Positions 8,694-60,498 of a DNA stretch of 64,000 nucleotides are shown here, piece after piece. A program made the position numbers and the translations under genes. The number at the start of each line of letters is the position of its first letter. The first letter of the stretch is position 1. The notes beneath the pieces are model-generated. The model searched no databases, was not told the DNA's origin, and worked only from the letters and a program-made list of their open reading frames with translations. Origin of the DNA: Sedimentisphaerales bacterium (GTDB taxonomy: Bacteria; Planctomycetota; Phycisphaerae; Sedimentisphaerales; SM23-30); NCBI GenBank assembly GCA_963666285.1, contig OY762711.1; one strand, 5' to 3'.

Positions 8694-8894
8694 TATGCGG
8701 TATCGTTCTTATGACTGTTCAGCATTATACGCAAAGGCGAACGGGCAATTAGGTTAAAATTGAATAATAATAAGTAAAAAACTAAGGTGTTGGACTATCC
8801 TTCGACTAGCTCAGGGCAGGTCGTCTCACGTTTTGATTAAATTGAAGATTCACCTGAACGGCCCTTTTAGGCGATTTACCAAAGGCACCGTATA
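8694..8894. repeat. Dispersed structured intergenic repeat, copy A (divergent, different central segment)
   Basis: Shares TGACTGTTCA-CATTA-ACGCAAAGGC and GGCCCTTTTAGGCGATTT with the copies at 36730, 40612 and 59629. Confidence 0.8.
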
Positions 8895-8897
8895 TTC

Positions 8898-10664
8898 TTA
8901 AGCCTGGGTATGATCTGTTGATGGTCGGGTAAGAAGGCTGATGACCACAAGAGTGGTAATGGAAACAAGGATAGCGGGAAGAACCGCATCAAGTTCGCCG
9001 AGCCAGCCTTTCCCTTTCAAATAAGGCTGAACGGCTTCTCCCCAGAGCAGAGTAATGATAGTGCCGGACAATATTGACACTACAGCACCCTTAGAGGTAG
9101 CACGTTTCCAGACGATGGCAGCAACCAGACAAGGTGTTATGGCAGAGCCGTAGATAGTGTAGGCATAGAGGGCTTTGTCAAAGAACCCGGTCGATTCTGA
9201 AAACAGCAGAGATACGCCGTAACCGATAAACCCGAAAATAAGAATCAGAACCCGGTTGAGGAAAATCAGCTGCTTTTGTCCGGCGTCAGGATTGATGCGA
9301 TTTTGATATACATCCTTCATAAAGGTAATCGTCGGGATAAGCAGGAAAGAATTGGCAGTTGAAATAATAATGCCGACGACAGTAACCAGGAAGACCAGCC
9401 CCAAGGCAAACGGCATATGATTTTTGGCAGCGTAAATTAGGACATATTTCCCATTTTCGGGGTTGGGGATCATACTGGAAGCGACCCAGGCATCGGCAAT
9501 GATCATAACCTCAATGGCAAGAGCCAGAAAAATCATAACAATAACAGCCTGTCGGGCACCTTTGGCGTTACGGCTGGCAAAAATGCGCTGGTACTGGTTG
9601 GCATCGCCAAGGATAAGCAGGAAAACCGGCAGCAGGAAATTCACCAGCTGAACCGGGGAATAAACACCCCAGAATTTCATATGGTCGGCTTTATTACCCA
9701 TGATGGTAAACGCATCGGCCATGCCAGAGAAACCACCAGCTTTGCTGAGCAAAACCGGGAAAGCGACAAGCACTGAAACTGTAATGAGTATGCCGGTGAC
9801 AATATCCATATAGGCCAGGCTCATAAGACCGGCCAGCATGGTATAGGCGATAATGAAAGCAGCGGCAATTATTGTGGCTTTCCGGGCAGAAATTTGCGGT
9901 TCTATCAGTTGCAGCGAACCAGCATCCGGTATGTTTTTGAGTTTGAAAGCGATATTGTGGCCGGTAATAGAAAATTTAAGTTTTACCGAATAGTCTTTCT
10001 GGACAACAGAGATATTATCCTGTTCTTCAACTTCTTTGGCAATCTGCATGAGATCAGCCCTTTCAACCACTTTGACAGTATAAGGGATAATATTATCGGC
10101 ATTATCAGCGGCTACCGCTTCGAGCTTAACAGTTCCGGTCCAGTCCTGGGGAGGGGTATAAGAGATACGGCCAGCTGTGAGCTGTTTTTTGGTGAAAGTA
10201 TCTTCGTCGGCAACAGGAATCGGTTCCTTATTGCCGGAGATAACCTCGATTACGGCACCACCGGCATTAAACTGATAGCTGACAATAACCATATAAGCAG
10301 TTATCAAGGCAATAACCGAAAGGAATCTGGCAGACTGGCCATAGCGTCTGCCGATGATTTCCGGAACAGACGAGGCTTCGATATTGCGGGCACGAGAGGC
10401 GATAAACGAAAGCAGGATCATGCCGAAAAAGGTGCCAAGCGGTATAATCATTGCCGCAAGACCGGTATTATAAGTCTTTTCGGCATTGCCGACAATTGAG
10501 CCGGTACCAATCCATACGGCAAGCATGGTGCAGACCATAATCCAGGGTGAAAGCGATCTGCCGGCAACAGCGAAATCTTCCTCGTTGTGCACCTGCCTGG
10601 ATTTGTATACGCCAATGACAACTAACAGTATAAGATATGAAAATATTGCTGTAATATAGATCAT
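8898..10664 (-). CDS. Sodium:solute symporter (SSS/PutP family) with an inserted soluble domain
   Basis: EDFAVAGRSL, AVWIGTGS, YQRIFASRN and ISTANS motifs; about 13 hydrophobic segments. Confidence 0.9.
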   Translation of the reverse strand: MIYITAIFSYLILLVVIGVYKSRQVHNEEDFAVAGRSLSPWIMVCTMLAVWIGTGSIVGNAEKTYNTGLAAMIIPLGTFFGMILLSFIASRARNIEASSVPEIIGRRYGQSARFLSVIALITAYMVIVSYQFNAGGAVIEVISGNKEPIPVADEDTFTKKQLTAGRISYTPPQDWTGTVKLEAVAADNADNIIPYTVKVVERADLMQIAKEVEEQDNISVVQKDYSVKLKFSITGHNIAFKLKNIPDAGSLQLIEPQISARKATIIAAAFIIAYTMLAGLMSLAYMDIVTGILITVSVLVAFPVLLSKAGGFSGMADAFTIMGNKADHMKFWGVYSPVQLVNFLLPVFLLILGDANQYQRIFASRNAKGARQAVIVMIFLALAIEVMIIADAWVASSMIPNPENGKYVLIYAAKNHMPFALGLVFLVTVVGIIISTANSFLLIPTITFMKDVYQNRINPDAGQKQLIFLNRVLILIFGFIGYGVSLLFSESTGFFDKALYAYTIYGSAITPCLVAAIVWKRATSKGAVVSILSGTIITLLWGEAVQPYLKGKGWLGELDAVLPAILVSITTLVVISLLTRPSTDHTQA

Positions 10665-10724
10665 GCTATTCCTTTAAAATTGGCAAATTAATTCTCCGGT
10701 TATCTATCGCGTGAAAATAACCAG

Positions 10725-12245
10725 CTACTCATTTATGGCATAACGCCAGTCAGTCCGCTGGGGGTGTTTGAAGATATCTGCGATCAGCTTTTCCAGCTGA
10801 GGGTCATATTTTGCCAACTGTTCGCGAGAACTGATAGTTTCGCCGGTCGAAACTTTAATCGAACCGGAATTGAAAAAGAGGCTGGTGCCATGGGCAAAAT
10901 ATTCAAAACGATTGGCAGAGACCGGGGTAGATTTCCAGAGGTTCTTTTCCATAGCAGCAGCATATAGATCCCTGAGTTTATAATCGAAACGAATATCCAT
11001 TCGCTCCAATCCGATTTCATATTGCTGCTTTTGCCTTTGGGCCTTAAACGCCAGATCTACCGGGCGAACACCATTATATATATATGCGGCAAGAGCCAGA
11101 TCGTGAACCAGGGAATCTTGTGTATTAGAGTCGATATATAAATGAAACTGCTCAGGCAAACTTATATGCATATATTTCTCTTCGTTGATAAAAGAATCGA
11201 CTTTTAGAGGATTGTCCTTTAACGTTGAAGGCAACTGCTTATAAACAGCCACAGAAAAATCGGCATCAATCATGGTTTTTAAGATATCATAACGATAACG
11301 AAACATATTGCGGACGATATTAGCAGTATTAAGCATCAAAGAGTCAGGAGTGTCTTTGGTGCCAAAAACCGAGAAATCCCAGAACCGGACAAACTTGCTA
11401 AAATTATCAGAAGCATCGGACGTATTTATCTTTTCTACGAGAGGAAGGTCATTGAGCGGCACATAACGCCAGTCATTATCGTCGGTAACTTTGAATATTT
11501 CCCGGACAAAGGATGCCATATCAGGATCGTAGGCAGTAAGCTCTTCGCGGGTGTTGATATCGTTATGGTTCCAGTTGTTCTGACGATCACAATCGAAAAA
11601 TGCCTGTACTGATTCGGCCCAGTATTCCGCGGCATTAGTAGCTGCATAATCATACTTGTAAAGACCTTTGTCCATCGCCTGCTGATAAAGGGCATCCAGC
11701 CTGCCTTGAAATGATGGATCACAATTGTGCAGACCGGGATGATGGATACCATGGGCCAGTTCGTGGATAAGAATACTTTCATCATCATATCGGTCACCCG
11801 GCAAGTTAAGTATATTTTCTTCGCCGCAGCTGGTGGTTCTGCCGCCGAAACCGCGTGCCCGCTGATTCCAGAAAGCTTTCGGTTTCATATGGGAATATTC
11901 AGGGACATCGGTAATCTGTTCTTCCCGGGCAACGATAATATAGCGGAACCCGGCATCAACCAGGGTCTGCCGAAGATCTGGACGATTGGCGAGCACATTA
12001 TCCAGTAATTCCTGTAAACGATAAAAGGCTTTGTCATCGACCTGATTGGAGCCAATCACAACAATGCCATCACAATCGAGATACTTTTCATAAAAAGGGT
12101 CTAATTTAAGTTCTGCCGGAGGAGAAGAGACATGGTTTGTACTACAGGAACATAAGCCGAAAAGAGCGCCCCCGGTAAGAACTAAACATAATATGTGCCT
12201 AAACATTTCAAACCTCATTAATTCAATGTAAAAATGTGTTGCCAC
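10725..12245 (-). CDS. Secreted or lipoprotein zinc metallopeptidase (HExxH) with an internally duplicated domain
   Basis: Lipobox-like LCSC; IHELAH...YAATNAAEYWAE; the second half repeats the pattern (HDLAL...NRFEYFA...SREQLAKYDP). Confidence 0.75.
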   Translation of the reverse strand: MATHFYIELMRFEMFRHILCLVLTGGALFGLCSCSTNHVSSPPAELKLDPFYEKYLDCDGIVVIGSNQVDDKAFYRLQELLDNVLANRPDLRQTLVDAGFRYIIVAREEQITDVPEYSHMKPKAFWNQRARGFGGRTTSCGEENILNLPGDRYDDESILIHELAHGIHHPGLHNCDPSFQGRLDALYQQAMDKGLYKYDYAATNAAEYWAESVQAFFDCDRQNNWNHNDINTREELTAYDPDMASFVREIFKVTDDNDWRYVPLNDLPLVEKINTSDASDNFSKFVRFWDFSVFGTKDTPDSLMLNTANIVRNMFRYRYDILKTMIDADFSVAVYKQLPSTLKDNPLKVDSFINEEKYMHISLPEQFHLYIDSNTQDSLVHDLALAAYIYNGVRPVDLAFKAQRQKQQYEIGLERMDIRFDYKLRDLYAAAMEKNLWKSTPVSANRFEYFAHGTSLFFNSGSIKVSTGETISSREQLAKYDPQLEKLIADIFKHPQRTDWRYAINE

Positions 12246-12529
12246 TTTAATAATTAGAAAAACAGCTTATCGGTCAAACGAAGACAAAGAATATCGTTTA
12301 TGTCATTTTACAGTTTACTATAATGCTTTCAAGGATTGTTTTAACGAACTAATAATTCTCACTACATCACAAACAGCTTGAATAGCTTGCATGAAAAGAC
12401 TTTATGTGTGAGATAGAATGGGAAATATGCGCAATGGCTGGCAAATCTTCAAATAACTGCACCAAAACAAGGAGACAATCTAAACAGATCGTATTTTATG
12501 AAAAATGAGAAAATTACCTATATATAAAA

Positions 12530-12560
12530 AATAAAGGCTGAAATTGATATATCTCAGCCT
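12530..12560 (-). terminator. Probable intrinsic terminator after the NUDIX gene
   Basis: AGGCTGA...TCAGCCT hairpin followed by a T-rich run on the minus strand. Confidence 0.55.
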
Positions 12561-12587
12561 ATTTGGAATTATCTCGGTTAAATACTG

Positions 12588-13229
12588 TTACAGGATATCG
12601 TGGCCCTGATGGTCAAGCATATGTTCAATGCCATCAAGGCAGAGGCTGGACCAGGTTTCCATAGTATCTTTAACAGCTTGCAGTTCATCAGGAGTAGAAA
12701 AGCCTATCTGGGTGATCATCTGCTCGCGTTTGTCAACCGCTTCGGCATCCAGCTGCCAGAGATGAACAACGCCAAGATGAACCTGGCCAACTTCGTTGGT
12801 ATCATCGTTGAGCAAAGCGACAATTCGGTCGGTATGGCCGGTACTGACAATAACTTCTTCTTCGATCTCACGTTCAACCGCCCTGCGATATATATCTTTG
12901 TAGTCAATTTCAGAATCATTGTTGACATGATCGACAGGATTTATATGACCACCGATTCCCATGGAACGATTGCCAACAAGCCGCTTTTCACCGCCACGCT
13001 TGCCACGGACATAGCTCAGGAATTTACCGTTGCAGGTCATAAGAACATAGGGTATAAGCTGCTTATAGGAAGGATCGTTTTCTGCTTCACTTCTAAGCAT
13101 AAACTTGAGATTTCCAGGGGCAAAGATACGGCTGACATACTCATCAATATCAAAACACAGGCCATGAAAAAGCGGGCCGGTTTCTTCGAGAACTTCACGT
13201 TTGACTACTAATACTTCCTCTTCTGCCAT
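12588..13229 (-). CDS. NUDIX-family phosphoesterase
   Basis: KQLIPY, GIGGHINP, REIEEE Nudix box and VGQVHLG. Confidence 0.85.
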   Translation of the reverse strand: MAEEEVLVVKREVLEETGPLFHGLCFDIDEYVSRIFAPGNLKFMLRSEAENDPSYKQLIPYVLMTCNGKFLSYVRGKRGGEKRLVGNRSMGIGGHINPVDHVNNDSEIDYKDIYRRAVEREIEEEVIVSTGHTDRIVALLNDDTNEVGQVHLGVVHLWQLDAEAVDKREQMITQIGFSTPDELQAVKDTMETWSSLCLDGIEHMLDHQGHDIL

Positions 13230-13301
13230 GATATTCCTTAACTATTGTTAACTGCGGTCAAAATTCGACAATACAGTTCATATACATTATAATTTATACT
13301 A

Positions 13302-13739
13302 TTATTTGTCTAAAGCGGCATCACATTTGGAGCTGCATTTTTCACACTGTTTTTTTGCTTTATATTCCTCATATTTGTCACGGGAATATTTAAACGGAGC
13401 GGTAACAATATCTTTCAGAAAAATAACAGGATCAGAAACTGCTCGTTTCGCATTGCTTTTGCTCCAGGTTTTATACTCATCCTGAGGCGAATCGGTATCA
13501 AGTGCGGTATAGCCGGTAACATAAGGATTAGGCTTGATACTGTCATAAGGTTCAGGTTTAATCTCGGCCTGTGTCCAGTTCCTATGGATAATATCTTCCG
13601 GTACATATTCGGCAGTCTGTGCGCAAGACTGTTCACCGCAATTAGCGTCAGGTTTAACAGAGAGAAACTCATTAACCTTGCCACAACCGGCAAGAGTAAG
13701 AGCAACCAGAATAAGAACAGGATACAACTTCCTTGTCAT
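13302..13739 (-). CDS. Hypothetical lipoprotein
   Basis: Signal peptide with LAGC lipobox and a GGAG RBS. Confidence 0.75.
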   Translation of the reverse strand: MTRKLYPVLILVALTLAGCGKVNEFLSVKPDANCGEQSCAQTAEYVPEDIIHRNWTQAEIKPEPYDSIKPNPYVTGYTALDTDSPQDEYKTWSKSNAKRAVSDPVIFLKDIVTAPFKYSRDKYEEYKAKKQCEKCSSKCDAALDK

Positions 13740-13796
13740 TTTTTACTCCATATTTTATATTCAACGAGCAACCGGTAAAGCCAGGCTGCTCAATAA

Positions 13797-15263
13797 TTAA
13801 CCAACAATATCACCACAGGAATAATTCGGAGCTTCCTGGGTAATGCTAATATCGTGCGGATGATTTTCTCTAACAGAAGCGGCGGTAATCTTGATGAACC
13901 TGGCATCGTTACGCAGTGTTTCAATGTCCTTTGTACCGCAATATCCCATCCCGGCACGCAGTCCGCCAACCATCTGATAAACAAATTCACTGAGCTTGCC
14001 ACGGTAAGGCACACGCCCTTCAACACCTTCCGGAACGAGTTTGTCAGCTTCGCGGGTATCCTGGCCATAACGGGCACCGCCGCCTTTGACCATAGCTCCC
14101 ATAGAGCCCATACCTCGATAAGTTTTGAACTGTCTGCCCTGATAGATTACTAATTCACCGGGCGACTCTTCGAGTCCGGCAAAAAGAGAGCCCAGCATAA
14201 CACTACTGGCACCAGCGGCAATAGCCTTGACAATATCGCCACTCTGCCTGACACCACCGTCAGCAATGACAGGAATACCAAATTCGTTGCCGGCACGAGC
14301 GGCATCCATGATGGCAGTGACCTGCGGTACACCTACGCCAGATACTACTCGAGTAGTACAAATGGACCCAGGTCCAATACCAACCCTGACAGCGTCAGCA
14401 CCAGCTTCGGCGAGAGCTTTGGCACCTTCATAAGTTGCGACGTTACCAGCAATAATTTCGATATCCCAGTTGCGTTTGATTTCTTCCACAGTCACCAGGA
14501 CATTCTTAGAATGGCCGTGGGCAGAGTCAACGGTAATAAAATCAACATCACTCTGGATAAGCTTTTCGACTCGATCGAAATCCATAACAGAGATAGAAGC
14601 CCCGACTCTCAGCCTACCGCGACTGTCCTTGGTAGCTTTGGGGTATTGATGAACTCTTTCGATATCACGCATTGTGATCATTCCCGCTAAAGTACCATCA
14701 CCGTTAACAAGAAGCAGTTTTTCCACCTTATGCTGGTTCAGGATAGCCTGAGCCTGAGACAGTTCAGTGCCGGCCGGACCGGTAACAAGATTGCCACTGG
14801 TCATAAGAGTAGAAACAAGCTGGGACTCATTTTCCAGAAAAGCCATATCACGGCGGGTAAGAATACCAATGAGCTTATTTTTGTCATCAACAACCGGTAT
14901 ACCGGAGATATTCTGGCGAGTCATCAATTCGCGAGCCTTACCAGCCAGGTCATCAGGTCCAAGTGTAACAGGATCAAGAATCACGCCATTTTCACTGCGT
15001 TTAACCTTTTCAACCTCGATAGTCTGTTCTTCGACAGACAGGTTTTTGTGGATAACGCCAATACCGCCTTCCTGAGCAATGGCAATAGCTAATGCCGACT
15101 CAGTTACGGTATCCATAGGTGAACTTACCAGTGGTATATTAACAGAAATATTGCGTGTCAGGCGGGTACTGGTATCGACATCTTTGGGCAGCAGTTCGCT
15201 GAAGGCCGGAACCAGTAAAACATCATCAAAAGTAATTGCCTGTCCAATAATTTTTTCACTCAT
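13797..15263 (-). CDS. guaB: IMP dehydrogenase with CBS pair
   Basis: [20 protein letters not shown] catalytic loop, YRGMGS and VPEGVEG. Confidence 0.98.
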
Positions 15264-15570
15264 TAGCGTCTTTCTAACTCCAGCCTTTCAATGGGCTTAT
15301 ACAAAGTTTTAAAATAAATTTATACCTGGCAAACAATTTTAACCGCATATAAAAGTAAAATCAAGGGCAAAACCAATTGCTAAAGCCTGGACCATAAAAG
15401 GCAAGAGTTATAACATGACATAAATGAAATAGCCGGCAAAAAATGCACCCAGAAATACAGGATAGCGGACAACAGGCAAAAAAACACCCCCAAGGAAAAG
15501 ACGACAACCCAACATAATTTTCAACTAAGTACTTATTAAACAAAAGTTTACGCAACCATCTTTCAGTAAA

Positions 15571-15606
15571 AGAAAAAGCCGCATCAAGCGTAGGCTCGTG
15601 CGGCTA
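15571..15606 (-). terminator. Probable intrinsic terminator
   Basis: AGCCGCA...TGCGGCT hairpin plus T-run on the minus strand, downstream of the 15641-16015 gene. Confidence 0.65.
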
Positions 15607-15640
15607 ATACTGTTCTTTTCAGAATATACTTATGTTATGA

Positions 15641-16015
15641 CTAGCAGACGACGACAACATTACCATCATTTAAGGAAAGCTCCTTGACGGAAAGTCCTTT
15701 AACCTTACGGTCTGCAAGCTTATTAAGCTGAATAATAAACTTATCATTTTCGAAAGCAATATATTTGGCAACTGACGGCTCCTGTACCTTTGCAGTAATA
15801 AACGGCTTCACCAGCGGCATAGCTTCGAGGCCAAGAGTAAGTATGCCGTCTGTATAGGATTCGAAAATAACGGTAATGTCAATCGTAAACATGACTTTAG
15901 CTTTGATTTTAATTTTATTGGCCTCAGCAGTAACAGAAGAAACCTTGTCAGGCAGCCAGTTATTCTTTTTTAGTATAGTCACCAGTTCGTCTAGTTGAAG
16001 TTCTAGTTTTGCCAT
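15641..16015 (-). CDS. Hypothetical protein
   Basis: 124-aa ORF with an AGGA RBS and a downstream terminator. Confidence 0.7.
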   Translation of the reverse strand: MAKLELQLDELVTILKKNNWLPDKVSSVTAEANKIKIKAKVMFTIDITVIFESYTDGILTLGLEAMPLVKPFITAKVQEPSVAKYIAFENDKFIIQLNKLADRKVKGLSVKELSLNDGNVVVVC

Positions 16016-16113
16016 GTTTATATCCTATATATTTATTTTTCTACATTAAACCAACTAAATATTCTAAATGTTAAGCAAATCGGGTTCAAGATAAATATTT
16101 GGAAGAAAACTGC

Positions 16114-16905
16114 TTATTCCGCCAGATGCCTGATAACCGCCCTCTTTCGAGGAAGCAGAATATCGGCTTTTTTGAACTCATCCGGCTGATCGGCCCAATA
16201 TTGCACATCGAGCAGCTCGACGAAATCAGCAGTATAGTCCTTGAGTATGCCTACAAGTTCGACAGGTTTATCTTTGTAGACAAATTCTGCAACAACCTTT
16301 CTGCCAATATACCGTTCCAGAAGCGGTTCGTAGGCAGTATCAACCGAACCGATAATTTCATTTTTCATCTGGGAGACATACTTCTCCTGGCTGCTGAGCA
16401 GGCCACCGGCCACGGTAGTTTTTTTACCTTGCGAAATAAGAACGTTTGAAACCTCCATAACGGTATCACGGATGGTTTTAAAGATATTTCCAATTTTGCG
16501 AAACAGCTTGCGGATTCCACTGGGATGGTAAGCTCTCTTGAGTTCTTTTTCTCTCTTTGAGTTATGTTTTGCCGTCAGGTATTCATGAAACCGAACAATA
16601 GCAGCTATATTACCATATTCATATTTATATATCATATAGGAAGACTCGACATGACCGTCGGTATCGAGGTTTGACTTTTCATAAATTAGTTCCATGCCGG
16701 TAGGTTCAACGCGAAGATTGCCCCAGACATGTTTCCCAGCCGAATCTTCGAGAGTGACCATATAGCCATTAAAAGCTTTCAGGCATTTATCCCTGTTTCT
16801 ACCCTTGATAAAAGCCGCGACAATAGTAGAAAGAAAAATAAAGCATATTGTCAGAAAAAACGGATTACTAAAACCGCTCCAGAAATTTGTTGCCTCACTC
16901 AGCAT
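16114..16905 (-). CDS. Hypothetical membrane-anchored protein
   Basis: N-terminal TM helix, AAGGGG RBS, co-oriented just downstream of the metal regulator. Confidence 0.75.
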   Translation of the reverse strand: MLSEATNFWSGFSNPFFLTICFIFLSTIVAAFIKGRNRDKCLKAFNGYMVTLEDSAGKHVWGNLRVEPTGMELIYEKSNLDTDGHVESSYMIYKYEYGNIAAIVRFHEYLTAKHNSKREKELKRAYHPSGIRKLFRKIGNIFKTIRDTVMEVSNVLISQGKKTTVAGGLLSSQEKYVSQMKNEIIGSVDTAYEPLLERYIGRKVVAEFVYKDKPVELVGILKDYTADFVELLDVQYWADQPDEFKKADILLPRKRAVIRHLAE

Positions 16906-16946
16906 ATATTGCCCCTTACGTAAATTCTAAAATCAGCCGAACCAAA

Positions 16947-18116: not shown

Positions 18117-18263
18117 TTATTACTCGTCTAAAAATACTACTATAGAGTTTCATTAAAATGTTTAATTGCAAACACTTAACTCTTAGCTGTGATATCTTAC
18201 CCCCCAAAATAAACCCGGTATATAACCACCAGACTATTGTTCGATTTCTCTAACTTCAGATGA

Positions 18264-18292
18264 ATTGTAAGATTAGCCTAACATCTTGTCAA
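18264..18292 (-). promoter_or_regulatory. Sigma70 promoter of the DtxR-Fur-FeoA gene with a DtxR/IdeR-type operator in the spacer
   Basis: The minus strand reads TTGACA-17 nt-TACAAT. Plus strand 18268-18286 (TAAGATTAGCCTAACATCT) matches 14 of 19 positions of TTAGGTTAGSCTAACCTAA. Confidence 0.8.
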
Positions 18293-36558: not shown

Positions 36559-36729
36559 ACTCGCAAAATCACCAACAACTATAAATAAACGGACAACCAT
36601 AATTATCGGAACCAGATAAAAAACAGTAAATTAGCATATAACCTTAATATTAAGATTAAAACAAGTGAATTCGGCTATTAAATATACCGAAGAAAACATG
36701 TAAGAAACTATAAAATGTTTCTTTTATAA

Positions 36730-36903
36730 GTGCGATTTTGCACTTTTGACTGTTCACATTACACGCAAAGGCAGAACAGGGCTTGTGAATGAAAAAGTTA
36801 TTTAATTATATTTTCGAGCTAATTCTCGAAAGTACATTTAATTCAAAGCGTTGCAGGAAGGCCCTTTTAGGCGATTTTGCAACTTAGAAATGCGAAAGAA
36901 AAC
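36730..36903. repeat. Dispersed structured intergenic repeat, copy B
   Basis: Near-identical to copies C and D; flanked by a TATAA direct repeat. Confidence 0.92.
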
Positions 36904-36961
36904 TATAACAGAATAAATATATTTGCAGAAAGTAACAATACCAGAGGCGAACGTTTAATAG

Positions 36962-40569: not shown

Positions 40570-40611
40570 CCGGTACCAAATATCCAAACAAAAAAAGACA
40601 AACACATAATA

Positions 40612-40791
40612 GTGCGGTTTCGCACTTTTGACTGTTCAACATTACACGCAAAGGCCAGAACAGGGCCTTGTGAATGAAAACTCTCTATTTAAATGTATTT
40701 CCGAGCTAATTCTCGAAAGTACATTTAATTCAAAACGTTGCAGGAAGGCCCTTTTAGGCGATTTTTGCAACTTAAAACTGCGAAAGTAAAC
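40612..40791. repeat. Dispersed structured intergenic repeat, copy C
   Basis: Near-identical to B and D; ACATAATA occurs at both 40604-40611 and 40790-40797. Confidence 0.92.
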
Positions 40792-41020
40792 ATAATATGG
40801 TCTGCCATTAATAAGATATTTATGCTGTTCCAGATATCACAAACCAGAACGGTTCTAATTATATAATCAATCTCGATTAATCACCGAAAGAGCTTGCCTG
40901 CTAAAGGCCTGCCCAGACAAAGTCTTCCTTATATAAAACTACATCAAAACTAGCGACACAGGTGAACTGTTAAAAATACAATCGCCGAGCATAGCGAGGT
41001 CTGATCAAGGATATGTCTTA

Positions 41021-46366: not shown

Positions 46367-46396
46367 AACTAATTCTCCTATGTTAGACTTTCAACC

Positions 46397-48991: not shown

Positions 48992-49449
48992 TTAGTCACG
49001 ATCGGTAAGCCGGTAAGTCATATCAGCTTTTACCTTGTTTCCTTTGGCATCTGCGATGACAACCGGTGTAATTTCGAACTCCGGAGTCTGGTCGCCGGAA
49101 ATCATAAAGTGGAGGCGGGCACATCTGAACTTACCGGAAGGTAATGATTTATCGAGATTGAAAGCGGCAAGTATGATTCTGCCATGATTAAGAGCCTTTG
49201 GGTCGTAATAGCCCGGAGCTTTGAAAGCCTCGCAGTCGCCGCCTTCAACGCCGGAAAGCTTTGCAATACCTGATGTTACCTTAAGTTCGAACTGGTATGC
49301 CGCGATAGACTTATCAGCGGAATCGATTATGATATCGACAGGTACAAACCTGACATTGCTGAAGTCAGCCTGCGGTTCAAGAGCTTTGCCGAAACTGTAT
49401 GTAAGTGCGGTAAAACAAAGGGTTAATATAATAATTGTCATTTTGTTCT
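48992..49449 (-). CDS. Exon 2 of a secreted cohesin-like protein; exon 1 is ATGA at 50172-50169 and the spliced N-terminus is MKNKMTIIILTLCF
   Basis: Signal peptide followed by VPVDIIIDSADKSIAAYQFELK...ARLHF, a cohesin-like beta pattern; the frame is restored exactly by removing the intron. Confidence 0.75.
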
Positions 49450-50168
49450 GTCGAGTAGGCATGTCGCCTCCTTTCATTAATTTAACAAATTCTGAGTTTC
49501 ATTATATTTTGTGCAAGGAAACGCATGCCCCTCACAGAACCGGACTTGAAGATTTCCCTCATCCGGCTCTTCATTAATGCTCACTTTGACGGCTACATAA
49601 GGCAAAGTAATGTGCCTTGTAGAAGTCTCCGATAGAAGACGCTGTGGAACGTTCATGGTTTCTTCCAGTTCAGTGCCTGGCCAATATCCTGTTTCGCCTT
49701 TACACATTAATGCTGACCCCTTCGAGTGCCTCAAACTTCGAAACTCAACAGGCATTACCCTGTTTACTCCTCTACTATGAGTCAGTCCGACTACCAAAAT
49801 GCCATACGGCCGCGTCACGGTTTCAGCTCCTTGGCCGCTTCCTTTCGGAGCACTTCGGTTCTCCCAAGTTCCAATGCAGTCAGTTCGTTTGCCCGCTACG
49901 GACTCAGACCCCGGCTCGTCGATATATGCTCGCCGTATTTCGCATATATCGATATTGGCTTCAGGCATATGAAAACCCTGGCCCGGATGCGATAAGGAAT
50001 AATTTCGGGGCTCAACACCTTCACTTGCGTTGTGGCTGACAAACTCCTTTCCCGGGGCTTCGTACAGTTCGTTACCTCTCTGCACGCCCGGTGCTGTAAT
50101 GGGCGGGTGGCTAGCCCTTACCCATGCCGGATTGGCCGGCTTGACTACATTAGCTTCGCTTGGCGCTC
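49450..50168 (-). mobile_element. Group II intron (719 nt) without an intron-encoded reverse transcriptase
   Basis: Domain V GAGCCGGATGAGGGAAATCTTCAAGTCCGGTTC (49569-49537); domain VI with the branch A 7 nt from the 3' end (CCTACTCGAC); 5' end GAGCG; EBS1 TCATAT complementary to exon ATATGA; short domain IV. Confidence 0.93.
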
Positions 50169-50188
50169 TCATATTATTATCCTTCAAT

Positions 50189-50680: not shown

Positions 50681-50700
50681 GGTTTATGGTCTCCGTATAT

Positions 50701-50729
50701 TTAGACCGCAGGTGAGTAAAATAGTTTCA
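50701..50729 (-). promoter_or_regulatory. ECF (sigmaE-like) promoter upstream of the anti-sigma gene
   Basis: The minus strand reads TGAAACT-N16-GTCTAA. Confidence 0.5.
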
Positions 50730-50744
50730 GAAAAATAAGAATAA

Positions 50745-51335: not shown

Positions 51336-51513
51336 GCTATAAGACGATACATTAAAAGATGCTGATAGTCAATTATACTTTCATTTCGAGCTGTTTTTGA
51401 TTAAGCTATCAAGAATGCTTTGGCTTGAATCTTATACAAGATGTGTACTGTTGACTGTTCAGCAGAACCAATTTAATGCCAGCTTAATGAATAAGATTAT
51501 ATAAGGAGTATTT

Positions 51514-51873
51514 ATGGCACGCCTGATAGAAAACGCAACAATTATAAAAGCAGCCGGTGAACCAGCAAAACAGATAGAAGAGTATATTGGCAAAGTAAAC
51601 TCACATAATAATGAAGTAAGCATAGCAAGAATGATAAGCCCTGCGGGATGGTCAGAACCTGGTCAGCGGCCAGAATTTGAAGAATATACCGTCGTTTTGA
51701 AAGGTGCCCTGGAGATGAAATTTGAAGGAAGCGAAATGACAGTTGAAGCAGGTCAGGCAGTCATAGTACATGCCGGGGAATGGGTTCAGTACAGTACCCC
51801 AGGCGGAGCCGAGTATATATCTGTTTGCATTCCAGCTTTTTCACCAGAGAAAGTTCACAGAGACCAGGAATAG
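51514..51873 (+). CDS. Cupin-domain protein (EutQ-like)
   Basis: GWSEPGQRPEFEEYTVVLKG motif and AAGGAG RBS. Confidence 0.85.
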   Translation: MARLIENATIIKAAGEPAKQIEEYIGKVNSHNNEVSIARMISPAGWSEPGQRPEFEEYTVVLKGALEMKFEGSEMTVEAGQAVIVHAGEWVQYSTPGGAEYISVCIPAFSPEKVHRDQE

Positions 51874-52272
51874 TTGAAACATACCAAATCTCTTAACATA
51901 ATAATTAAAAATCTTTTGAGCAAAACACGCTTCCACCAGGAGCTTGAGTGCACGTTTTATTTACTTAAAGCACACCAGGCTTCTAATTATATTGCCATGC
52001 ATTAAAAGTATTCTACGCCGTAAAAACTTTCAATTTGTTTTTTAGTCTAATAATAAACTAAGAACCACATCATATAATCTCAATGTTGCACAATAACTTT
52101 GTTTCATAGTAAACGAAAACAAACTGCCGGCACTTCCACGTATAGCGACATTTCTTTTTAAAGTTAAGTTCCGTTTCCTCTTTAACGAAAAGGGATAAAG
52201 AATATAAGAAAAGAGAAGATTCATTGCCAATGTATGCAATGTGTAATTAAACTTTTTTGTAGAGGAGAGAAC

Positions 52273-52851
52273 ATGGTTAATCTAAAAAGACTTTTAACAC
52301 TCGTTTTATGTATTACTCTTGTCACCGCCACAGCGTTATTAGCAGCTGAAAAGACAGAAGAAGAAAAATCTGCCCTGGCGAAAGAAAGTGAAAAAAGAGC
52401 AGAAGAAACAGCAAAAACCAAACCAACAGCAAAAATGATTATCGAGAAAGTAAATTCTGCATGCAAGCTTCTGGAGAAAGAAGGAGCAGAAGCATTTGAC
52501 AAATTCAAGGGAAAAGACAGCGAATACATATTTGCCGGAACGTATATCTGGCTGCACGATATGAAAGGTGTAATGAAAATGCATCCCATCAAATTCAAGA
52601 TGGAAGGAAAAGCATTGATAGGCCTGAAAGATAAGAATGGTAAACTCTTCTTTGCTGAAATGAATAAAGTTACACGAGAGAAAGGTGCCGGATGGGTAGA
52701 TTATATGTGGCCGAAACCAGGCGAAAAAGAACCAGCCCTAAAAGTATCATATGTAAAACTATGCAAGATGAAAGACGGCAGCGAAATAGTTGTCGGCTGC
52801 GGTGTCTACGATTTACCAAAAGAAGAAGTAGCAAAACTGCTTAGTAAATAA
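52273..52851 (+). CDS. Stand-alone periplasmic single-Cache sensor protein
   Basis: GAGGAG RBS before ATG 52273; signal peptide; MHPI...LKDKNGK...GWVDYMWPKPG...KVSYV. Confidence 0.88.
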   Translation: MVNLKRLLTLVLCITLVTATALLAAEKTEEEKSALAKESEKRAEETAKTKPTAKMIIEKVNSACKLLEKEGAEAFDKFKGKDSEYIFAGTYIWLHDMKGVMKMHPIKFKMEGKALIGLKDKNGKLFFAEMNKVTREKGAGWVDYMWPKPGEKEPALKVSYVKLCKMKDGSEIVVGCGVYDLPKEEVAKLLSK

Positions 52852-52910
52852 GTCATATTAAGATAAGACAATAACTAAAGTAGAGAGAAGATTATAAATT
52901 ATTTGGGAAC

Positions 52911-52945
52911 CAGACAGGCGAAGCGATAAACGATTTCGCCTGTCT
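52911..52945. other. Stable intergenic hairpin between the Cache and MCP genes
   Basis: AGACAGGCGAA...TTCGCCTGTCT inverted repeat without a T-run. Confidence 0.6.
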
Positions 52946-52978
52946 ATACAGCATTCATAATAGGAGAGAGGATTTTAG

Positions 52979-54715
52979 ATGAAGATGAATATCAGGCAAA
53001 AATTATTCTTATTTTTTGGATGGGCGGTTTGTGCAATACTTATTATTTGCATAATCGGTGCAATAAGTTACACAAGAATTGAAAAACGCCAGGAACTGAA
53101 AGCCAAACTGAATGCAACAGCGAAAAAAGTACAAGAGTGTCGTTTAATAGAAAAAAGTTATTTACAATATTTTTCTGATGAACAGAAAAAGCAATTCAGT
53201 TCAGTTGCTAATGAAATGACAACAATACTGGATGAACTGGAAAAACATAACGATAATGAAAATAATCTAGACAAAATAAGTGAGAAATATCGTCATCAAT
53301 TTGACCAGGTAGCTAAACTGCATGAGGAGCATGCTGAATTAAAGCTACAGATAGCACAACCGATGCAGAATGCCCTATCCAGTATGGATAAAATAAAATC
53401 TCTACTGGATGAAAGACAATACGAACTCCAAATAGAAGGAGAAGATCTGGGCCCGGAGGAGGTGCAACTAGCCACAATCTTACGCGATTGCAAAATAGCA
53501 TTCCTGGAACTAAAAAACCTGCAAACACAATTTCTGACAACAGGAGAAGTTTCCTATCTGGACAAATTCAAAGAAATATCAAATGGGAACGTGCAGGCAT
53601 TTATCATATCCTTAATGGAATTTTCCAGGGCACTCGAAAATAAAGACTATATTGCAAACTCTGAAATAGTAAATAAATCACTGGATAATTTCCTTGGGAT
53701 GATAAGTAAATCTTTAGAATACGGTCAAAAGGAAAATGAGGCAATTACTAACCTCGACCATGCCGGCAACGAAATAATTATAGAAACTGACAAATTCCTG
53801 ACAGCACAAGACGAACAGATAAAGTCGGAAAAATACCTGGCCTTGATGGTTGTCGTAATAGTCACAGGGATAAGTATCCTTGCATTTACAGGAATGTCAT
53901 TGCATATGATAAGATCAATCACTCATTCGATACAAGGTATAGTATCAGTGATAAAATCCGGAATAACCCAGATGGCAGAGTCTGCGACAGAAATAGCTAC
54001 CTCAAGCAGATCGTTATCAGAAGGGGCAACAGAGCAGGCGGCCTCACTGGAAGAAACTTCATCGACACTGGAAGAGATGTCATCCATGACAAAAAGCAAC
54101 GCGGTAAACGCCGGTGAAGCAGACAGCTTCATGGCAAGCACAAATGAGACAGTAAATACAACGAGTGTTTCAATGAACCACTTAATATCATCGATGCAAG
54201 ATATAAGCAAAGCAAGTGAAGAAACCGCTAATATCATCAAGGCAATTGACGAAATAGCGTTTCAGACCAATCTGCTGGCATTGAACGCAGCAGTTGAAGC
54301 AGCCCGAGCCGGAGAAGCCGGAAAAGGTTTTGCCGTGGTGGCAGAAGAAGTACGCAACCTGGCGATGAGATCGGCGGCAGCGGCAGATAATACATCCGCA
54401 TTGATAGAAACAACGTGCAATGAGATTAATAACGGAAGCAAACTGGTAACAGAGGCTAATACCGCATTTAACAATGTAGGGGAAAGTGCCGGAAAAGTTG
54501 GAGCTTTGTTAAGTGAAATAGCAGAAGCTTCCAAAGAACAATCGACCGGCATTAACCAGGTTAACGAAGCAATAACACGAATCGATCAGGTAACCCAACA
54601 ATTTGCAGCAGAATTATGTAATTTCACATGCACTTCAGATTCGATGAAGAACAAGGCCCAGGATATACGGACAGCAGTTGAAGACCTGGATGCATTAATT
54701 GGCGGCAAGAGATAA
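52979..54715 (+). CDS. Methyl-accepting chemotaxis protein
   Basis: Two TM helices, helical periplasmic domain and [37 protein letters not shown]. Confidence 0.96.
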
Positions 54716-54737
54716 AAAATTGTCAGATATAAATATA

Positions 54738-54771
54738 ACAACTCATCCTGAATACCTTGGGATGAGTTGTA
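54738..54771. terminator. Hairpin between the convergent MCP and nagD genes (probable bidirectional terminator)
   Basis: ACAACTCATCC...GGATGAGTTGT inverted repeat. Confidence 0.65.
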
Positions 54772-54777
54772 GTTATA

Positions 54778-55560
54778 TCAGCAATTTCCGGGAATATCAC
54801 CAACACCACTGAGAATTATTGATGGCCGGTAAGGGAAATTCTTTATATCCTGCTCACTGGTAATTCCACTTAAAACGAGTATAGTGTGAATTTCTGACTC
54901 GATACCAGCGATAATATCAGTATCCATCCTGTCGCCAATAATAGCAGTATCTTCACGACAACACCCAAGCTTCTTAAGAGAATTACGCATGATCAGCGGA
55001 TTGGGTTTGCCGATAAAATACGCCTGCTTTCCGGTAGCAAATTCGATGGGAGCCATAAGGGATTTACATGCCGGAACAATACCTGATTCTGAGGGTCCGG
55101 TCAAGTCCGGGTTGGTGCCGATGAGCTTGGCCCCGGCAATAACTAACTGGATCGCCTTTTCGATTTTTTCATAATTGTATTCCCTGGTTTCACCAAGCAC
55201 AACATAGTCCGGATCTTTGTCAGTGATTACGCAACCATATTCCAGCAAAGCCTCGGTAAGCCCGTGTGCACCAATAGCATAAACCCTGGCCCCCGGAGTC
55301 TGCTGGCTAATAAATAAAGCAGTAGAAATCGCACTGGTCATAAAACATGATTCAGCAATATCAAGCCCCATATCAAGCAATTTCTGGCGCAGCTGCCGCG
55401 GCGAACGTTCAGAACTGTTAGTAAGAAAAAGAAATTCCTTTTGGGTTTCCCTGATCCAGCCGAGAAATTCCCTGGCACCATCAAGCAATCGACTGCCATG
55501 ATAAATGACACCGTCCATATCACAGATAAATGCTTTTTTATTACGTATTATGTCCAACAT
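54778..55560 (-). CDS. nagD: HAD-IIA family hydrolase (NagD-like)
   Basis: DMDGV, LTNSS, GKPNP and GDRMDTDI. Confidence 0.9.
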   Translation of the reverse strand: MLDIIRNKKAFICDMDGVIYHGSRLLDGAREFLGWIRETQKEFLFLTNSSERSPRQLRQKLLDMGLDIAESCFMTSAISTALFISQQTPGARVYAIGAHGLTEALLEYGCVITDKDPDYVVLGETREYNYEKIEKAIQLVIAGAKLIGTNPDLTGPSESGIVPACKSLMAPIEFATGKQAYFIGKPNPLIMRNSLKKLGCCREDTAIIGDRMDTDIIAGIESEIHTILVLSGITSEQDIKNFPYRPSIILSGVGDIPGNC

Positions 55561-55797
55561 ACCTTATCCTATACCTACTTTCGTTCGAAAATATATAATA
55601 CAACAGAAAGAGCAAAAAGCAAAAGCCAGCATAACCACTTACCAATGCGACACTTAACACAATTTACTCATACCGTAATATTTCATACTCACCTGCTATT
55701 ATACATCGGTATAACAAGCAGCAACTTTATACTTTTACCTTCAGATTTTAAATATTAAAGGAGTAATCTACAAGTTATTTTGAGAAGTAAAAATACA

Positions 55798-57414
55798 TTA
55801 CTTACCTCTAGAGGTCAAAAGGGAAAGTTCGTCTGCCTTGAGCAGCCGGGCAGAAATATAATAAACAGCAGCACAGCCAAAAGTCAAAATAGAAATCTGG
55901 CTGTATTTATCAAGAGATAGTGTATACTTTAATAATATCATACCAACAACTGCCATAATCCCCGAAGCTATACAAGATTTGATAATGCACGGCATAATAT
56001 GTCCGCCAATGTTTAACTCATACCTTTTAACCAAAATGAAGAGCAATATTACAGACTGCAAAACAGCAGAAATAGTTGTAGCAAGCCCAAGTCCACCTGT
56101 TGCCAACGGCCAGATAAGGATAATATTCAGTAAAAAGTTGAGAGCAATCATACGAACAGCAATTTTCATTGGGGTTATGCTATCTTTGAAAGAATAGTAA
56201 GCTCTGACCACAAGTTGCTGGAGACAATATGCGGTAATACCGAAAGAATAATACACAAGAGTTATTGCAGTATTAGCGGTATCTGTCTCTGTAAACTGGT
56301 TTCCTTCGAAAATAGCTCTAACCATAGTAGATGACACTATTATCAGGCCAATAGTAGCAGGAATACCAATAAAAAGGACAATCCTAATGCCATGGTTGAG
56401 CTGTTTGCCGAAACCTTTAATATCATTATTAACTACACAAGAACTAAGAAATGGGAAAATAGCAGTTGCCAATGCTATGCCAAATACGCCTAATGGGAAC
56501 TGGTAACATCTTTGAGCATAAAATAAATATGTAACCGAACCTTCAAAAACCGGATAAGCAATAGTTTTCCCAAACAATGTAAAAGATTCGCCGCTTTCCG
56601 GGGTAGCACGCAACAGATAAGCAATAACCGTATCCATAAGAGTATTAATCTGAACCGCGGCCAATCCAACGATCATTGGAAGCATTATCCTGAATATTTT
56701 TCTAAGCGGCTCTTCATTGAATATAAATCGAGGGAATAAAGATATGCCATGCTTACGTAAAGCCGGAACTTGTATGGCAAACTGAATAACACCAGCAACA
56801 AGTACCGCCCATGCCGCGGAGTAAATCTGATCCCATCGAATATCGTCGAACCTTCCGCTAAACTGAAATCTTTCGCTGAAAAATATAACCCCGGCAATAA
56901 TAACAATATTAAGAAAAACCGGAGCAGCAGCAGGAGCAAGAAAATGACGGTGGACTTGCAGCATACCACCAACCATAGCAACCGAGCAGATCAAAATCAT
57001 ATACGGAAGCATAATCGCGGCCAAAGAAAGCATAAGTAAGGTTTTATTAGTAAAATATTCCTGACCACCATATATAAGAGCAAAAATTAAACAAATGCCA
57101 ATAATTGTTATTATAGAAAGGAAAATAACCAACAAAGTAAAAACACTGCGGGCAAGCAACCTGGCTTTTGCGGGATCTTGTTTTAGCTGTTCAGTATAAA
57201 CCGGAATCAGAGCGGCTGTGAGAGCACCTTCGCCGAATAATCTGCGGGATAAATTAGGAATAAGAAATGGTATATAAAAATAATCCAGAATAGCGGCACC
57301 AAAATAGCGGCTCATTACAGCATCACGAACGAGGCCAAGAATGCGACTAAGCAAAGTTAGCAGCGAGATTAGCTTGGCGGCGGAAACAAAGGATTTAGAT
57401 TTCGTTTCAGACAT
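55798..57414 (-). CDS. murJ: Lipid II flippase MurJ (MviN)
   Basis: SRILGLVRD, PNLSRRLFGEGAL, QFPLGVFG and RAYYS. Confidence 0.95.
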   Translation of the reverse strand: MSETKSKSFVSAAKLISLLTLLSRILGLVRDAVMSRYFGAAILDYFYIPFLIPNLSRRLFGEGALTAALIPVYTEQLKQDPAKARLLARSVFTLLVIFLSIITIIGICLIFALIYGGQEYFTNKTLLMLSLAAIMLPYMILICSVAMVGGMLQVHRHFLAPAAAPVFLNIVIIAGVIFFSERFQFSGRFDDIRWDQIYSAAWAVLVAGVIQFAIQVPALRKHGISLFPRFIFNEEPLRKIFRIMLPMIVGLAAVQINTLMDTVIAYLLRATPESGESFTLFGKTIAYPVFEGSVTYLFYAQRCYQFPLGVFGIALATAIFPFLSSCVVNNDIKGFGKQLNHGIRIVLFIGIPATIGLIIVSSTMVRAIFEGNQFTETDTANTAITLVYYSFGITAYCLQQLVVRAYYSFKDSITPMKIAVRMIALNFLLNIILIWPLATGGLGLATTISAVLQSVILLFILVKRYELNIGGHIMPCIIKSCIASGIMAVVGMILLKYTLSLDKYSQISILTFGCAAVYYISARLLKADELSLLTSRGK

Positions 57415-57496
57415 AGAATATATAAATACAGCTTTCGCCGACATCCACAACAAAATATATTAGGGTGTTCGCTACTACTCACAAATACTGATAAAG

Positions 57497-59575
57497 TTAA
57501 TATACCATTTCGACGATTTTTTCGGATATCTGCTCTGGAACACGTGCATAGGAGTCTGTTTCCATGGTATAGCCCGCCCTGCCCTGTGTAGCACCGCGAA
57601 GCTCTGAAGCATAACCAAACATTTCCGCAAGAGGGACTTTGGCATGTATAATGCGAGTCTGGCCTCGCTGCTCAGTTTCATAAATTTCAGCTCGTTTGCG
57701 AGTAAGGTCACCTTGTACAGCGCCATAAAAAGATTCAGGAGTAGCAACTTCCAGCTTCATAATCGGTTCCATAAGAACAGGAGCAGCACGATCCATAGCA
57801 TCACGAAAAGCCATTGACGCTGCCTGCTGGAAAGCCGGCTCGCTAGAGTCAACTTCATGGAAAGATCCGTCAATAATAGCAACCTTAATATTGGAACAAG
57901 GAAAACCGGCAAGATTACCATTCATCGCGGCATCTTTGAGGCCTTCAAGTGCCGGAGTGATAAACTCCTTAGGAATAACACCACCAGTAGTTTTATCTTC
58001 AACAACAATCGTTTCACCACCAGCTTCCGGTTCGTAAGGTTCCATTGCAATTACAACATGGCCATACTGACCGCGTCCGCCGGTCTGATGAATAAATTTT
58101 CCTTCACCCTTGGCAGATTTGGTAATTGTTTCCTTATAAGCAACACGAGGTTTACCGATAAGTACATCAACTTTCATGTCGCGAGTAAGCTTGTGCTGAA
58201 TAATCTCAAGATGCAGCTCACCCATACCAGAGATTAAAGTCTGACCTGTATCTTCGTTATACTGAGCATGGAAAGATGGGTCCTCGCGTTTGAGAGTTTC
58301 CAGAGCCTGAGCAAGCTTGGCACGTTCACCGGCAGTCCTTGGCTCGATAGACTGACTTATAACAGCTTCGGGTGACTCAATAGAATCGAGAACAACAGGA
58401 GTCTTTGTACCGCAGATAGTATCACCGGTATATACATCCTTTAATCCAACTACAGCGACAATATCACCGGCAGATGTTTTATCAACGGCCTCACGAGCAT
58501 TAGCGTGCATATGGAAAATCTTCGTAAGGCTTTCTTTTTTGTTGCGGGTAGAATTCAGAACACGTTCGCTTGGTTTCAGTGTACCGGAATAAATTCGTAA
58601 AAAGGTCAAATCGCCATGGGAATCAGAGGCGATTTTGAAAGCTAAAGCTACAAGCGGGCCACCGGGATCACATTTAACCGAAATTGCATCAGAGCTGCCT
58701 TTTTTGCCGGCAGGATAACCTGTAACATCAGGCCTGTCCAATGGAGAAGGAAGGAAGCTGACTACAGCATCAAGCAACTTTCGGGAACCAATACTTTGAA
58801 GAGCAGAACCGCACAGCGTAGGCTGAATCTGATTGCTAAGCGTACCGGCCCTTAGCCCGGCAATAATATCTTCAGGAAATACTTCTTCCTCAGCCAGATA
58901 TTTTTCCATTAACTCTTCAGAAAAATCTGCTGCGGCTTCAATCATCTCGCCCCGAAGAAGAACAGCTTCATCAAGCATATCAGCGGGGATATCTATTTCA
59001 TTATATTTAGCGGCGACCTTATCAGGTTCAAAATGATAAGCTTTCATATCGAGAAGATCAACAAAACCAGAAAAATCATCAGAGGCCCCAATAGGAATCT
59101 GCAAAACAACAGGTTTGGCACCTAATCTTTCACGGAGAGAATCGACTGCCATCTCAAAATCAGCACCAAGTTTGTCCATTTTATTAATAAAACATATCCT
59201 GGGAACACCGTATTTTTCGGCTTGATGCCAGACTGTTTCAGATTGGGCCTGAACACCTTCACTGGCATCAAAAACAGCAACAGCACCATCAAGCACTCTT
59301 AGCGAACGCTCAACTTCGATGGTAAAGTCTACGTGTCCGGGAGTATCGATGAGGTTAATGGTATGACTTTTCCATGGGCAGCGTGTAGCGGCGGAGGTAA
59401 TGGTTATGCCACGCTCCTGCTCCTCCTGTAGATAGTCCATAACAGCAGTACCATCGTGAACTTCACCAATTTTATAGGTACGCCCGGTAAAATAGAGAAT
59501 ACGCTCGGTAACAGTGGTTTTACCAGCGTCGATATGTGCCATAATGCCAATATTTCTGAGTTTGCTCAGGTCCAT
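57497..59575 (-). CDS. fusA: Elongation factor G
   Basis: [23 protein letters not shown] and GMGELHL. Confidence 0.98.
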
Positions 59576-59628
59576 TTATGCCTCTGAAATGTTCTCAACT
59601 GAATACAATTAAGTTTTCGGTACTGTTT

Positions 59629-59829
59629 GTGCGGTTTCCGCACATTTGACTGTTCAACATTACACGCAAAGGCCGGAACAGGGCCTTGTGAATGAAAAAC
59701 TAAATATTTAAGTGTATTTTCGAGCTATTTCTCGAAAGTATATTTAATTCGAAGCGTTGCAGGAAGGCCCTTTTAGGCGATTTACCAGAGGCACTTCGTT
59801 ATTGCAACATAGAAACTGCGAAAGTAAAC
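59629..59829. repeat. Dispersed structured intergenic repeat, copy D (between rpsG and fusA)
   Basis: Near-identical to B and C, with an extra ACCAGAGGCAC segment shared with copy A; ACTGTT is duplicated at both flanks. Confidence 0.92.
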
Positions 59830-59874
59830 TGTTATAATATCGTAAATTATACAGAATTTGATTTAATAAACATT

Positions 59875-59919
59875 AAAAAAGCCGCTGCACATCTGATTTG
59901 GCAGATGTAACAACGGCTG
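59875..59919 (-). terminator. Probable intrinsic terminator directly after rpsG
   Basis: AGCCG..ACATCTG-loop-CAGATGT..CGGCT hairpin followed by T6 on the minus strand. Confidence 0.7.
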
Positions 59920-59939
59920 TTATAATTCTGGTAAGAAAA

Positions 59940-60413
59940 TTACCATGCAAAGTGAGCGAAAGCCTTGTTAGCTTCAGCCATACGATGCACATTTTCTCTA
60001 GTGGTCATAGCGTTACCTTCTCTACGGTATGCAGCAGATAATTCATCTGCCAGCCGCTGAGCCATGGGCTTACCTTTTTTATTACGAACAGCAGCAAGTA
60101 CCCAACGAAAAGCAAGAGATTGCTGACGTTTAGCCGGAACCGGCATTGGAACCTGGTAAGTAGAACCACCAACACGCTTAGAACGAACTTCGATCTGAGG
60201 TTTGATGTTATTGATAGCTGTTTCAAAAGCTTCAAGCTCGCTGACATCCTTAACTCTCTGACCCATGATATCAAGGGCATCATAAACAACCTTCTGAGCG
60301 ATGGTCTTTTTGCCATCAAGCATAAGGTAATTGACAAACTTTGATACCAGGATACTGTTGAATTTAGGATCCGGTCTCAACTGCTTCTGTGATGCAGTGA
60401 ATTTCTTCGGCAT
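59940..60413 (-). CDS. rpsG: 30S ribosomal protein S7
   Basis: [15 protein letters not shown] and [13 protein letters not shown]. Confidence 0.99.
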
Positions 60414-60436
60414 TTTAGCTTATAACCTCCGTTATA

Positions 60437-60498
60437 GTGCCATTGCACTTTTAACTGTTAAACGCTTTACGCAAAGCCATTTAAGGCGAATAATGCAA
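60437..60498. repeat. Minimal 62-bp member (copy E) of the dispersed repeat family, between rpsL and rpsG
   Basis: GTGCcattGCACTTTTAACTGTTAAACGCTTTACGCAAAGCCATTTAAGGCGAATAATGCAA keeps both conserved ends and lacks the central arm. Confidence 0.7.

Follow-up and report, generated by a model that had tools for sequence, protein, structure and literature searches.

Bacterial examples of MITEs (miniature inverted-repeat transposable elements) include the Correia (NEMIS) elements of Neisseria and the RUP elements of Streptococcus pneumoniae. Other intergenic repeats, such as the BOX elements of S. pneumoniae and the BIMEs of enterobacteria, are modular; their boxes occur in varying combinations and form strong hairpins. 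The repeat family described here was noticed as five copies within a 64,000-nucleotide stretch of contig OY762711.1 from a Sedimentisphaerales bacterium (hereafter the window; G000:C1:4096001–4160000 of a 6.35-Mb assembly). These five copies are very probably a sample of a high-copy MITE family. Like bacterial MITEs, the element is short, non-coding, present in high copy number and intergenic; it has terminal inverted repeats, is flanked by a duplication of fixed length, has ends in common with an autonomous insertion sequence (IS) of the same genome and folds into long hairpins. It differs from Correia/NEMIS and RUP in its IS701-related ends, its 5-bp duplication, its planctomycete host and an interior mosaic that is unrelated to the IS. 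BOX elements and BIMEs, for their part, show neither a clear 5-bp duplication nor inverted repeats that match an IS, both of which are seen here.

Two further described systems bear on the comparison. A MITE of Porphyromonas gingivalis that carries a minisatellite is likewise reported to contain an interior tandem repeat of varying unit number (PMC4596501). In the present family the unit is 7 nt long and occurs one to five times after a small GC hairpin, and the sequence, the phylum and the presumed transposase all differ. The second system is the IS701 family, which includes ISAba11 and ISGka1/2 (PMC9771954, PMC8024623). As in that family, the presumed partner of the MITE is a DDE element of 1.43 kb with a single open reading frame (ORF) and a duplication of 4–5 bp; the family found here is, by comparison, a non-autonomous derivative. 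The sequence-only reading that drew attention to the five copies had called the element unrecognised. For the family itself this stands, as no published description of it was found in open-access papers and preprints, a search that did not cover ISfinder. For the kind of element it does not, as MITEs are well known, and general knowledge of them is unchanged by this family. What is notable about the family is its copy number, its reassorting modules, an internal heptamer array and its insertions in the str operon. Its assignment explains a conspicuous set of repeats, which take up about 0.5% of the chromosome of a planctomycete from a little-studied lineage, and the likely transposase, exact ends and target preference should aid the annotation and assembly of related genomes.

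A blastn search with the five copies detects approximately 236 loci in the 6.35-Mb genome, 115 on the plus strand and 121 on the minus strand. All are chromosomal, with none on three contigs of ~65 kb, and they cover 0.54% of the chromosome; crude ORF calls place 230 of the 236 between genes. The description of a five-copy, same-orientation family is accordingly true inside the window, where all five copies lie on the plus strand, but is an effect of the window, given that both strands are used genome-wide. Five copies in 64 kb is also an ordinary density: the mean is 2.4 per window, and 14% of 64-kb windows hold at least five. A profile search for the conserved cores gave 164 left and 199 right cores, of which 139 were paired at a distance of 40–120 nt, while 25 left and 60 right cores are solo; an exact 27-nt core pattern had no matches in the genome contigs. 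The A-type arm described below is kept in 20 of the 60 solo right cores and a remnant of the B/C/D-type arm in six. Upstream of 13 of the 60 there is a different small hairpin of the ACTGACCG..GGT type (for example near G000:C1 5982364 and 4841588), and in some of these cases other heptamer runs and the A-type arm come next. Such cores may belong to elements whose left end is of another kind.

Anchoring at both ends yields a set of 109 full copies, which extend from GTGCGG.. at the left to ..GTAAAC at the right. They measure 85–253 bp, mostly ~183–240 bp, and three of them are short forms of 85–115 nt. None has coding capacity, the longest stop-free stretch in any frame across the 109 copies being 71 amino acids. 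The terminal inverted repeats are imperfect; left end and reverse-complemented right end agree in 17 of 27 aligned columns, around the core T.TCGCA.TTTT. The pairing of the two ends proposed earlier is this terminal inverted repeat.

The evidence that the copies were inserted comes from their flanks. When the five bases before GTGCGG are compared with the five bases after GTAAAC, an exact duplication is found in 48 of the 109 full copies, whereas permuted partners give a mean of 1.8 (maximum 6). At least four of the five positions match in 79 of the 109, against a permuted mean of 12.2 (maximum 21). The duplicated target is AT-rich, with the consensus T-A-W-W-A. In addition, one MITE copy of 182 bp lies inside another repeat of ~100 nt, the filled sequence being ..acAGCAA[element]AGCAAtaaaa.. 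and that of the empty site ..acAGCAAtaaaa... Five host-repeat copies, of at least 17 at ≥90% identity, were compared as empty sites, and they differ from the filled site exactly by the element plus AGCAA. This filled/empty pair fixes both the ends of the MITE and its 5-bp duplication. The host repeat is itself a separate intergenic family of ~100-nt units (G000:C1:4257601–4257704, 4636278–4636379, 433110–433208 and others), with one copy at G000:C1:4095769–4095870, ~130 nt before the window.

The str operon, which holds two of the window copies, points the same way. The rpsG–fusA spacer, site of copy D, is 365 nt long here but ~170–196 nt in three genomes of the same genus, and the rpsL–rpsG spacer, site of copy E, is 128 nt here but ~30–40 nt in those genomes. 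In each case the excess is about the size of the copy, although the spacers are too diverged to be aligned across the insertion points. The genes around copies B and C show no synteny in the relatives. Together, the duplications and empty sites show that copies arrived by transposition, and the suggestion of a non-autonomous mobile element is upheld by them, by the shorter orthologous spacers and by an IS701-family element whose ends match and whose duplication is equally long. Insertion very probably occurred by cut-or-copy-and-paste transposition of the DDE type, which duplicates a 5-bp AT-rich target.

A different class of mobile element was also considered. A palindromic element of the REP/BIME or IS200/IS605 type would be moved in single-stranded form by a hairpin-recognising tyrosine (Y1/RAYT) transposase. 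Transposons that move in this strand-specific way are known to show a replichore orientation bias; elements of the REP/BIME or IS200/IS605 type insert without target-site duplication and have no terminal inverted repeats. The small hairpins at or near the ends, the modular build and the high intergenic copy number of the present family would all suit such an element, as would a modest replichore bias, in that 142 of the 236 loci are oriented opposite to the strand with most genes in their replichore (Fisher p 0.003). The 5-bp duplication in 48–79 of the 109 copies and the filled/empty pair, however, contradict an element of this type, and the ends match those of a DDE-type IS701-family element; the family is almost certainly not of this kind. 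The replichore bias does bear on the arrangement in the window. The cumulative GC skew of the chromosome peaks near 2.68 Mb and has its minimum near 5.72 Mb; within this span 67 loci are on the plus strand and 46 on the minus strand, while outside it the numbers are 48 and 75. The window lies where plus-strand copies dominate, so the shared orientation of its five copies fits the bias.

The transposase is most likely supplied in trans by an IS701-family IS of the same genome, one of the IS-like repeats listed by comparison of the genome with itself. This IS is 1.43 kb long and present in eight copies, starts with GTAAACTTTCGCACTTTTT and has the inverted counterpart at its other end. Perfect 5-bp duplications flank all eight copies (GGTTT, TTCTA, TATGA, AAATA, TATTA, TCTTA, TAGAG and TCATT), and three of these words, TATGA, TATTA and TCTTA, recur among the duplications of the MITE. 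Direct repeats of 4–5 bp have been reported for IS701 members (PMC8024623). Read inward, the right end of the MITE agrees with the inverted repeat of the IS in 18 of its first 22 bases, while agreement for the left end extends to 18 of 27 aligned columns; the core common to the IS inverted repeats and the MITE ends is GT..ACTTTCGCA.TTTTT. Matching ends, the same duplication length and a similar target preference thus make the IS701-family transposase the most likely mobiliser. Its single ORF of 430 amino acids matches Pfam DDE_5 (7e-22; 78.6 bits against a cut-off of 27) and NCBIfam transpos_IS701_3 (NF049999; 286.5 bits against a cut-off of 170). The protein is identical in seven copies and 91% identical in the eighth, and the seven identical transposases suggest recent activity. 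Homologues of the IS in named metagenome-assembled genomes of Sedimentisphaerales and other Planctomycetota have ends of the form GT(A/T/G)AACTTTCGCAC, and these include a GTTAAC variant such as is found at many right ends of the MITE. None of the eight copies of the IS lies inside the window, which was not scanned for other transposases.

Other candidate partners fared less well. An IS256-family element (G000:C1:223285–224732 and two more copies; Transposase_mut 2e-111) was set aside as belonging to a different family; its ends hold a 12-mer that resembles the MITE core. A 1.5-kb DDE element present in four copies in genome G003 of the same genus (G003:C1:1946708–1950079 and three more) has ends unrelated to those of the MITE; the MITE copies of that genome keep intact duplications, but no partner was detected there. 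A long copy enclosing a transposase was also sought: seven pairs of left and right cores lie 1–5.5 kb apart, and the five intervals inspected contain ordinary genes.

Between its fixed ends the element is a mosaic. The B/C/D-type arm is present in 52 of the full copies, the A-type arm in 49 and other arms in eight. The left hairpin occurs in two forms, either short or with a 22-nt loop insert, and the right-hand hairpin occurs with or without an 18-nt insert. All eight combinations of these modules with the two main arms are present (32, 16, 14, 11, 10, 8, 8 and 2 copies), which implies reassortment among copies. The exchangeable middle read from the five copies alone is confirmed. The arm of copy A, described from them as unrelated sequence, is not unique to that copy but is the second major arm type. 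The modules reassort among copies, presumably by recombination or template switching between them together with replication slippage. In 41 A-type copies the small GC hairpin is separated from the arm by a 7-nt tandem array. The lengths of the array segment fall mostly on the series 16, 23, 30, 37 and 44 nt, and the array has one to five units. The units resemble GTGAAAA/ATGAATA, without C on that strand, and the array of copy A lies at ~8745–8785.

The family extends to close relatives. In a DNA search of 40 relatives it was found in each of the genus's three other genomes, which gave 13, 4 and 1 matches (71–87% identity); outside the genus there were only two marginal hits. The diverged copies of the same genus carry intact 5-bp duplications. 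The large expansion of the family coincides with the presence of the IS, and the contrast between a genome with seven identical transposases and three relatives that lack them and have far fewer matches offers a natural example of partner-dependent MITE amplification.

Several points weigh against the MITE interpretation or against the proposed partnership. The mobility of the MITE is read from its sequence. The outermost hexamers differ, being GTGCGG at the left and GTTTAC or GTTAAC at the right (read inward) in the MITE and GTAAAC in the IS; because of this the partnership is one that we infer, and the mobiliser could instead be a related IS701-group element, lost or unfound. Past ~22 bp the MITE and the IS share no similarity, no blastn locus overlaps an IS copy, and the MITE cannot be described as a simple deletion product of the IS. 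The three same-genus genomes have duplicated copies but neither a transposase homologue (E ≤ 1e-10) nor a family match above the cut-off; two of these genomes are 94–98% complete and one is 72% complete. Finally, several internal blocks are invariant in an alignment of 10 sequences from four genomes, which pure decay of selfish DNA does not obviously predict. The invariant blocks may be subterminal binding sites for the transposase, or a sign of another function. One proposal in the latter direction is that the element serves as a vehicle that spreads cassettes consisting of the small GC hairpin and the 7-nt tandem array, with the invariant blocks maintained by selection, for instance because they act as a signal at the protein or RNA level, even where a relative no longer has the transposase, and with modules shuffled for diversity. 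This is considered rather unlikely.

The invariant blocks are also among the features that could speak for an RNA. In that case the family would be a multi-copy structured non-coding RNA, either a family of small RNA genes or a cis-regulatory RNA, whose plus-strand fold is selected and for which mobility is secondary or absent. The plus strand of copy C folds at -55.7 kcal/mol (z -5.3) into a closing helix and three hairpins, the consensus fold has seven G-U pairs on the plus strand, and variation in length is located at hairpin loops. One stem contains two compensatory pairs between two species (GUUGCA/UGCAAC against GUCACA/UGUGAC), and divergence is slightly lower in paired columns (6.6%) than in unpaired columns (9.1%). 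The closing helix of copy C is, however, the inverted repeat, and the minus strand of this copy folds equally (-54.8 kcal/mol, z -4.5). In an alignment of ten copies drawn from four genomes, covariation contributes -0.05 kcal/mol, most pairs are invariant and four of 31 pairs show any double change. Across 49 distinct B/C/D-type copies, double-sided changes number 10 cells in eight of 61 pairs, compared with 11–20 cells when partners are shifted. Single transitions at Watson-Crick pairs lead to G-U 81 times and to A-C 86 times (p 0.76), so that wobble is not preferred on the plus strand; together with the near-equal folds, this leaves the earlier suggestion that G-U pairs favour that strand unsupported. 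Over the long-range pairing AAAGGCC/GGCCCTTT put forward with it, the fold prefers the local hairpin AAAGGCC..GGCCTT.

Evidence from outside the fold is no more favourable to an RNA. Rfam, searched with the whole window at the gathering score and with copies C and D at E-values up to 10, has no family that matches the element at the gathering score; the best E-values, 1–4, belong to unrelated eukaryotic families. The configurations of genes flanking the loci (77/73/55/24) mirror those of long intergenic regions in general (639/600/503/215), and hence orientation is not tied to neighbouring genes; across the 236 loci no bias relative to adjacent genes was found beyond this background. A promoter scan found nothing at the ends of the element, and the duplications and empty sites mark the copies as having arrived by transposition. 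With no Rfam match, covariation, strand asymmetry of wobble pairs or bias relative to flanking genes, the proposal of a multi-copy non-coding RNA is highly improbable. RNAalifold on a set selected by length gave a poor consensus from mixed subtypes, and a subtype-specific alignment was used in its place. A Bacteroidetes promoter and a FopS-like small RNA family were dropped, the host being a planctomycete as judged by a prepilin-type protein and by the IS homologues of Sedimentisphaerales.

All five copies in the window lie where they had first been placed, and the layout then proposed is confirmed in its parts: a GTGC..GCAC hairpin at the left, a conserved block, an arm that varies and a GGCCC..AGGCGA block are all present. 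Copy A (8694–8894) has an A-type arm and a degenerate left hairpin, is truncated at its 3′ end without the terminal right repeat, and adjoins the stop codon of an ORF at 8898–10664 on the minus strand. It is 72–82% identical by blastn to other A-type copies across ~190 nt. Copies B, C and D are mutually 85–93% alike and complete. Copy B (36730–36903), between divergent ORFs, has the B/C/D arm type and a short left hairpin and is without the 18-nt insert; the word TATAA stands at 36725–36729 and again at 36904–36908, as read from the flanking bases. Copy C (40612–40791), between convergent ORFs and of the same arm type, is similarly flanked by ATAATA at 40606–40611 and 40792–40797. Copy D (59629–59829) carries the optional 18-nt insert in its right-hand hairpin and lies in the rpsG–fusA spacer on the strand opposite to the str operon, with flanks TGTTT and TGTTA that match at four of five positions. 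Copy E begins at 60437 in the rpsL–rpsG spacer and retains the left end together with a portion of the right block. It was rightly described as armless; it is a degenerate short form that probably runs to ~60525 rather than to the 60498 first given, a right boundary that is uncertain, and its similarity to other copies is limited to ~32–48 nt at 80–91%.

MITE insertions are thus tolerated inside the rpsL–rpsG–fusA operon. Copies D and E could serve as examples of a further alternative, in which individual copies of the MITE have been co-opted, for instance as terminators, mRNA-stabilising hairpins or outward promoters. Besides the tolerance of D and E in an essential operon, this would be in keeping with the TTTT that follows the left hairpin on the plus strand and with the right end of the consensus, where TTGCAA-17 nt-TAAACT is loosely promoter-like; right-end cores, moreover, are followed by a downstream gene in the same orientation more often than not (116 against 82). 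The last count corresponds to 59%, compared with ~57% expected from the excess of promoter-containing intergenic regions. The right-end hexamers score 8/12, are not called by a sigma-70 scan and are not conserved in the copies of the relatives, and the left stem is only 5 bp long. Co-option is therefore regarded as quite unlikely. A sigma-54 reading of the right end was discarded, the spacing being 2 nt too long by eye.

Returning to the surroundings of copy D, a hairpin followed by a T run is present at 59840–59940 on the minus strand, a short way past rpsG when read along the strand of the operon, and is kept in the three relatives; copy D sits between it and fusA. Contigs from sequencing run X3 match both junctions of copy D without differences; this identity indicates the same strain and is uninformative on polymorphism. 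The joints listed in that run lie between repeats or other organisms. Run X4, from a sediment metagenome, contains diverged copies of the family, amounting to a small share only. Elsewhere in the window, at 49446–50186 on the minus strand, there is a group II intron-like unit without an ORF (Rfam RF02005, 116 bits; RF00029, 55 bits). It is one of eight copies of a ~740-nt repeat in the genome and the sole type of Rfam family to reach the gathering score in the window.

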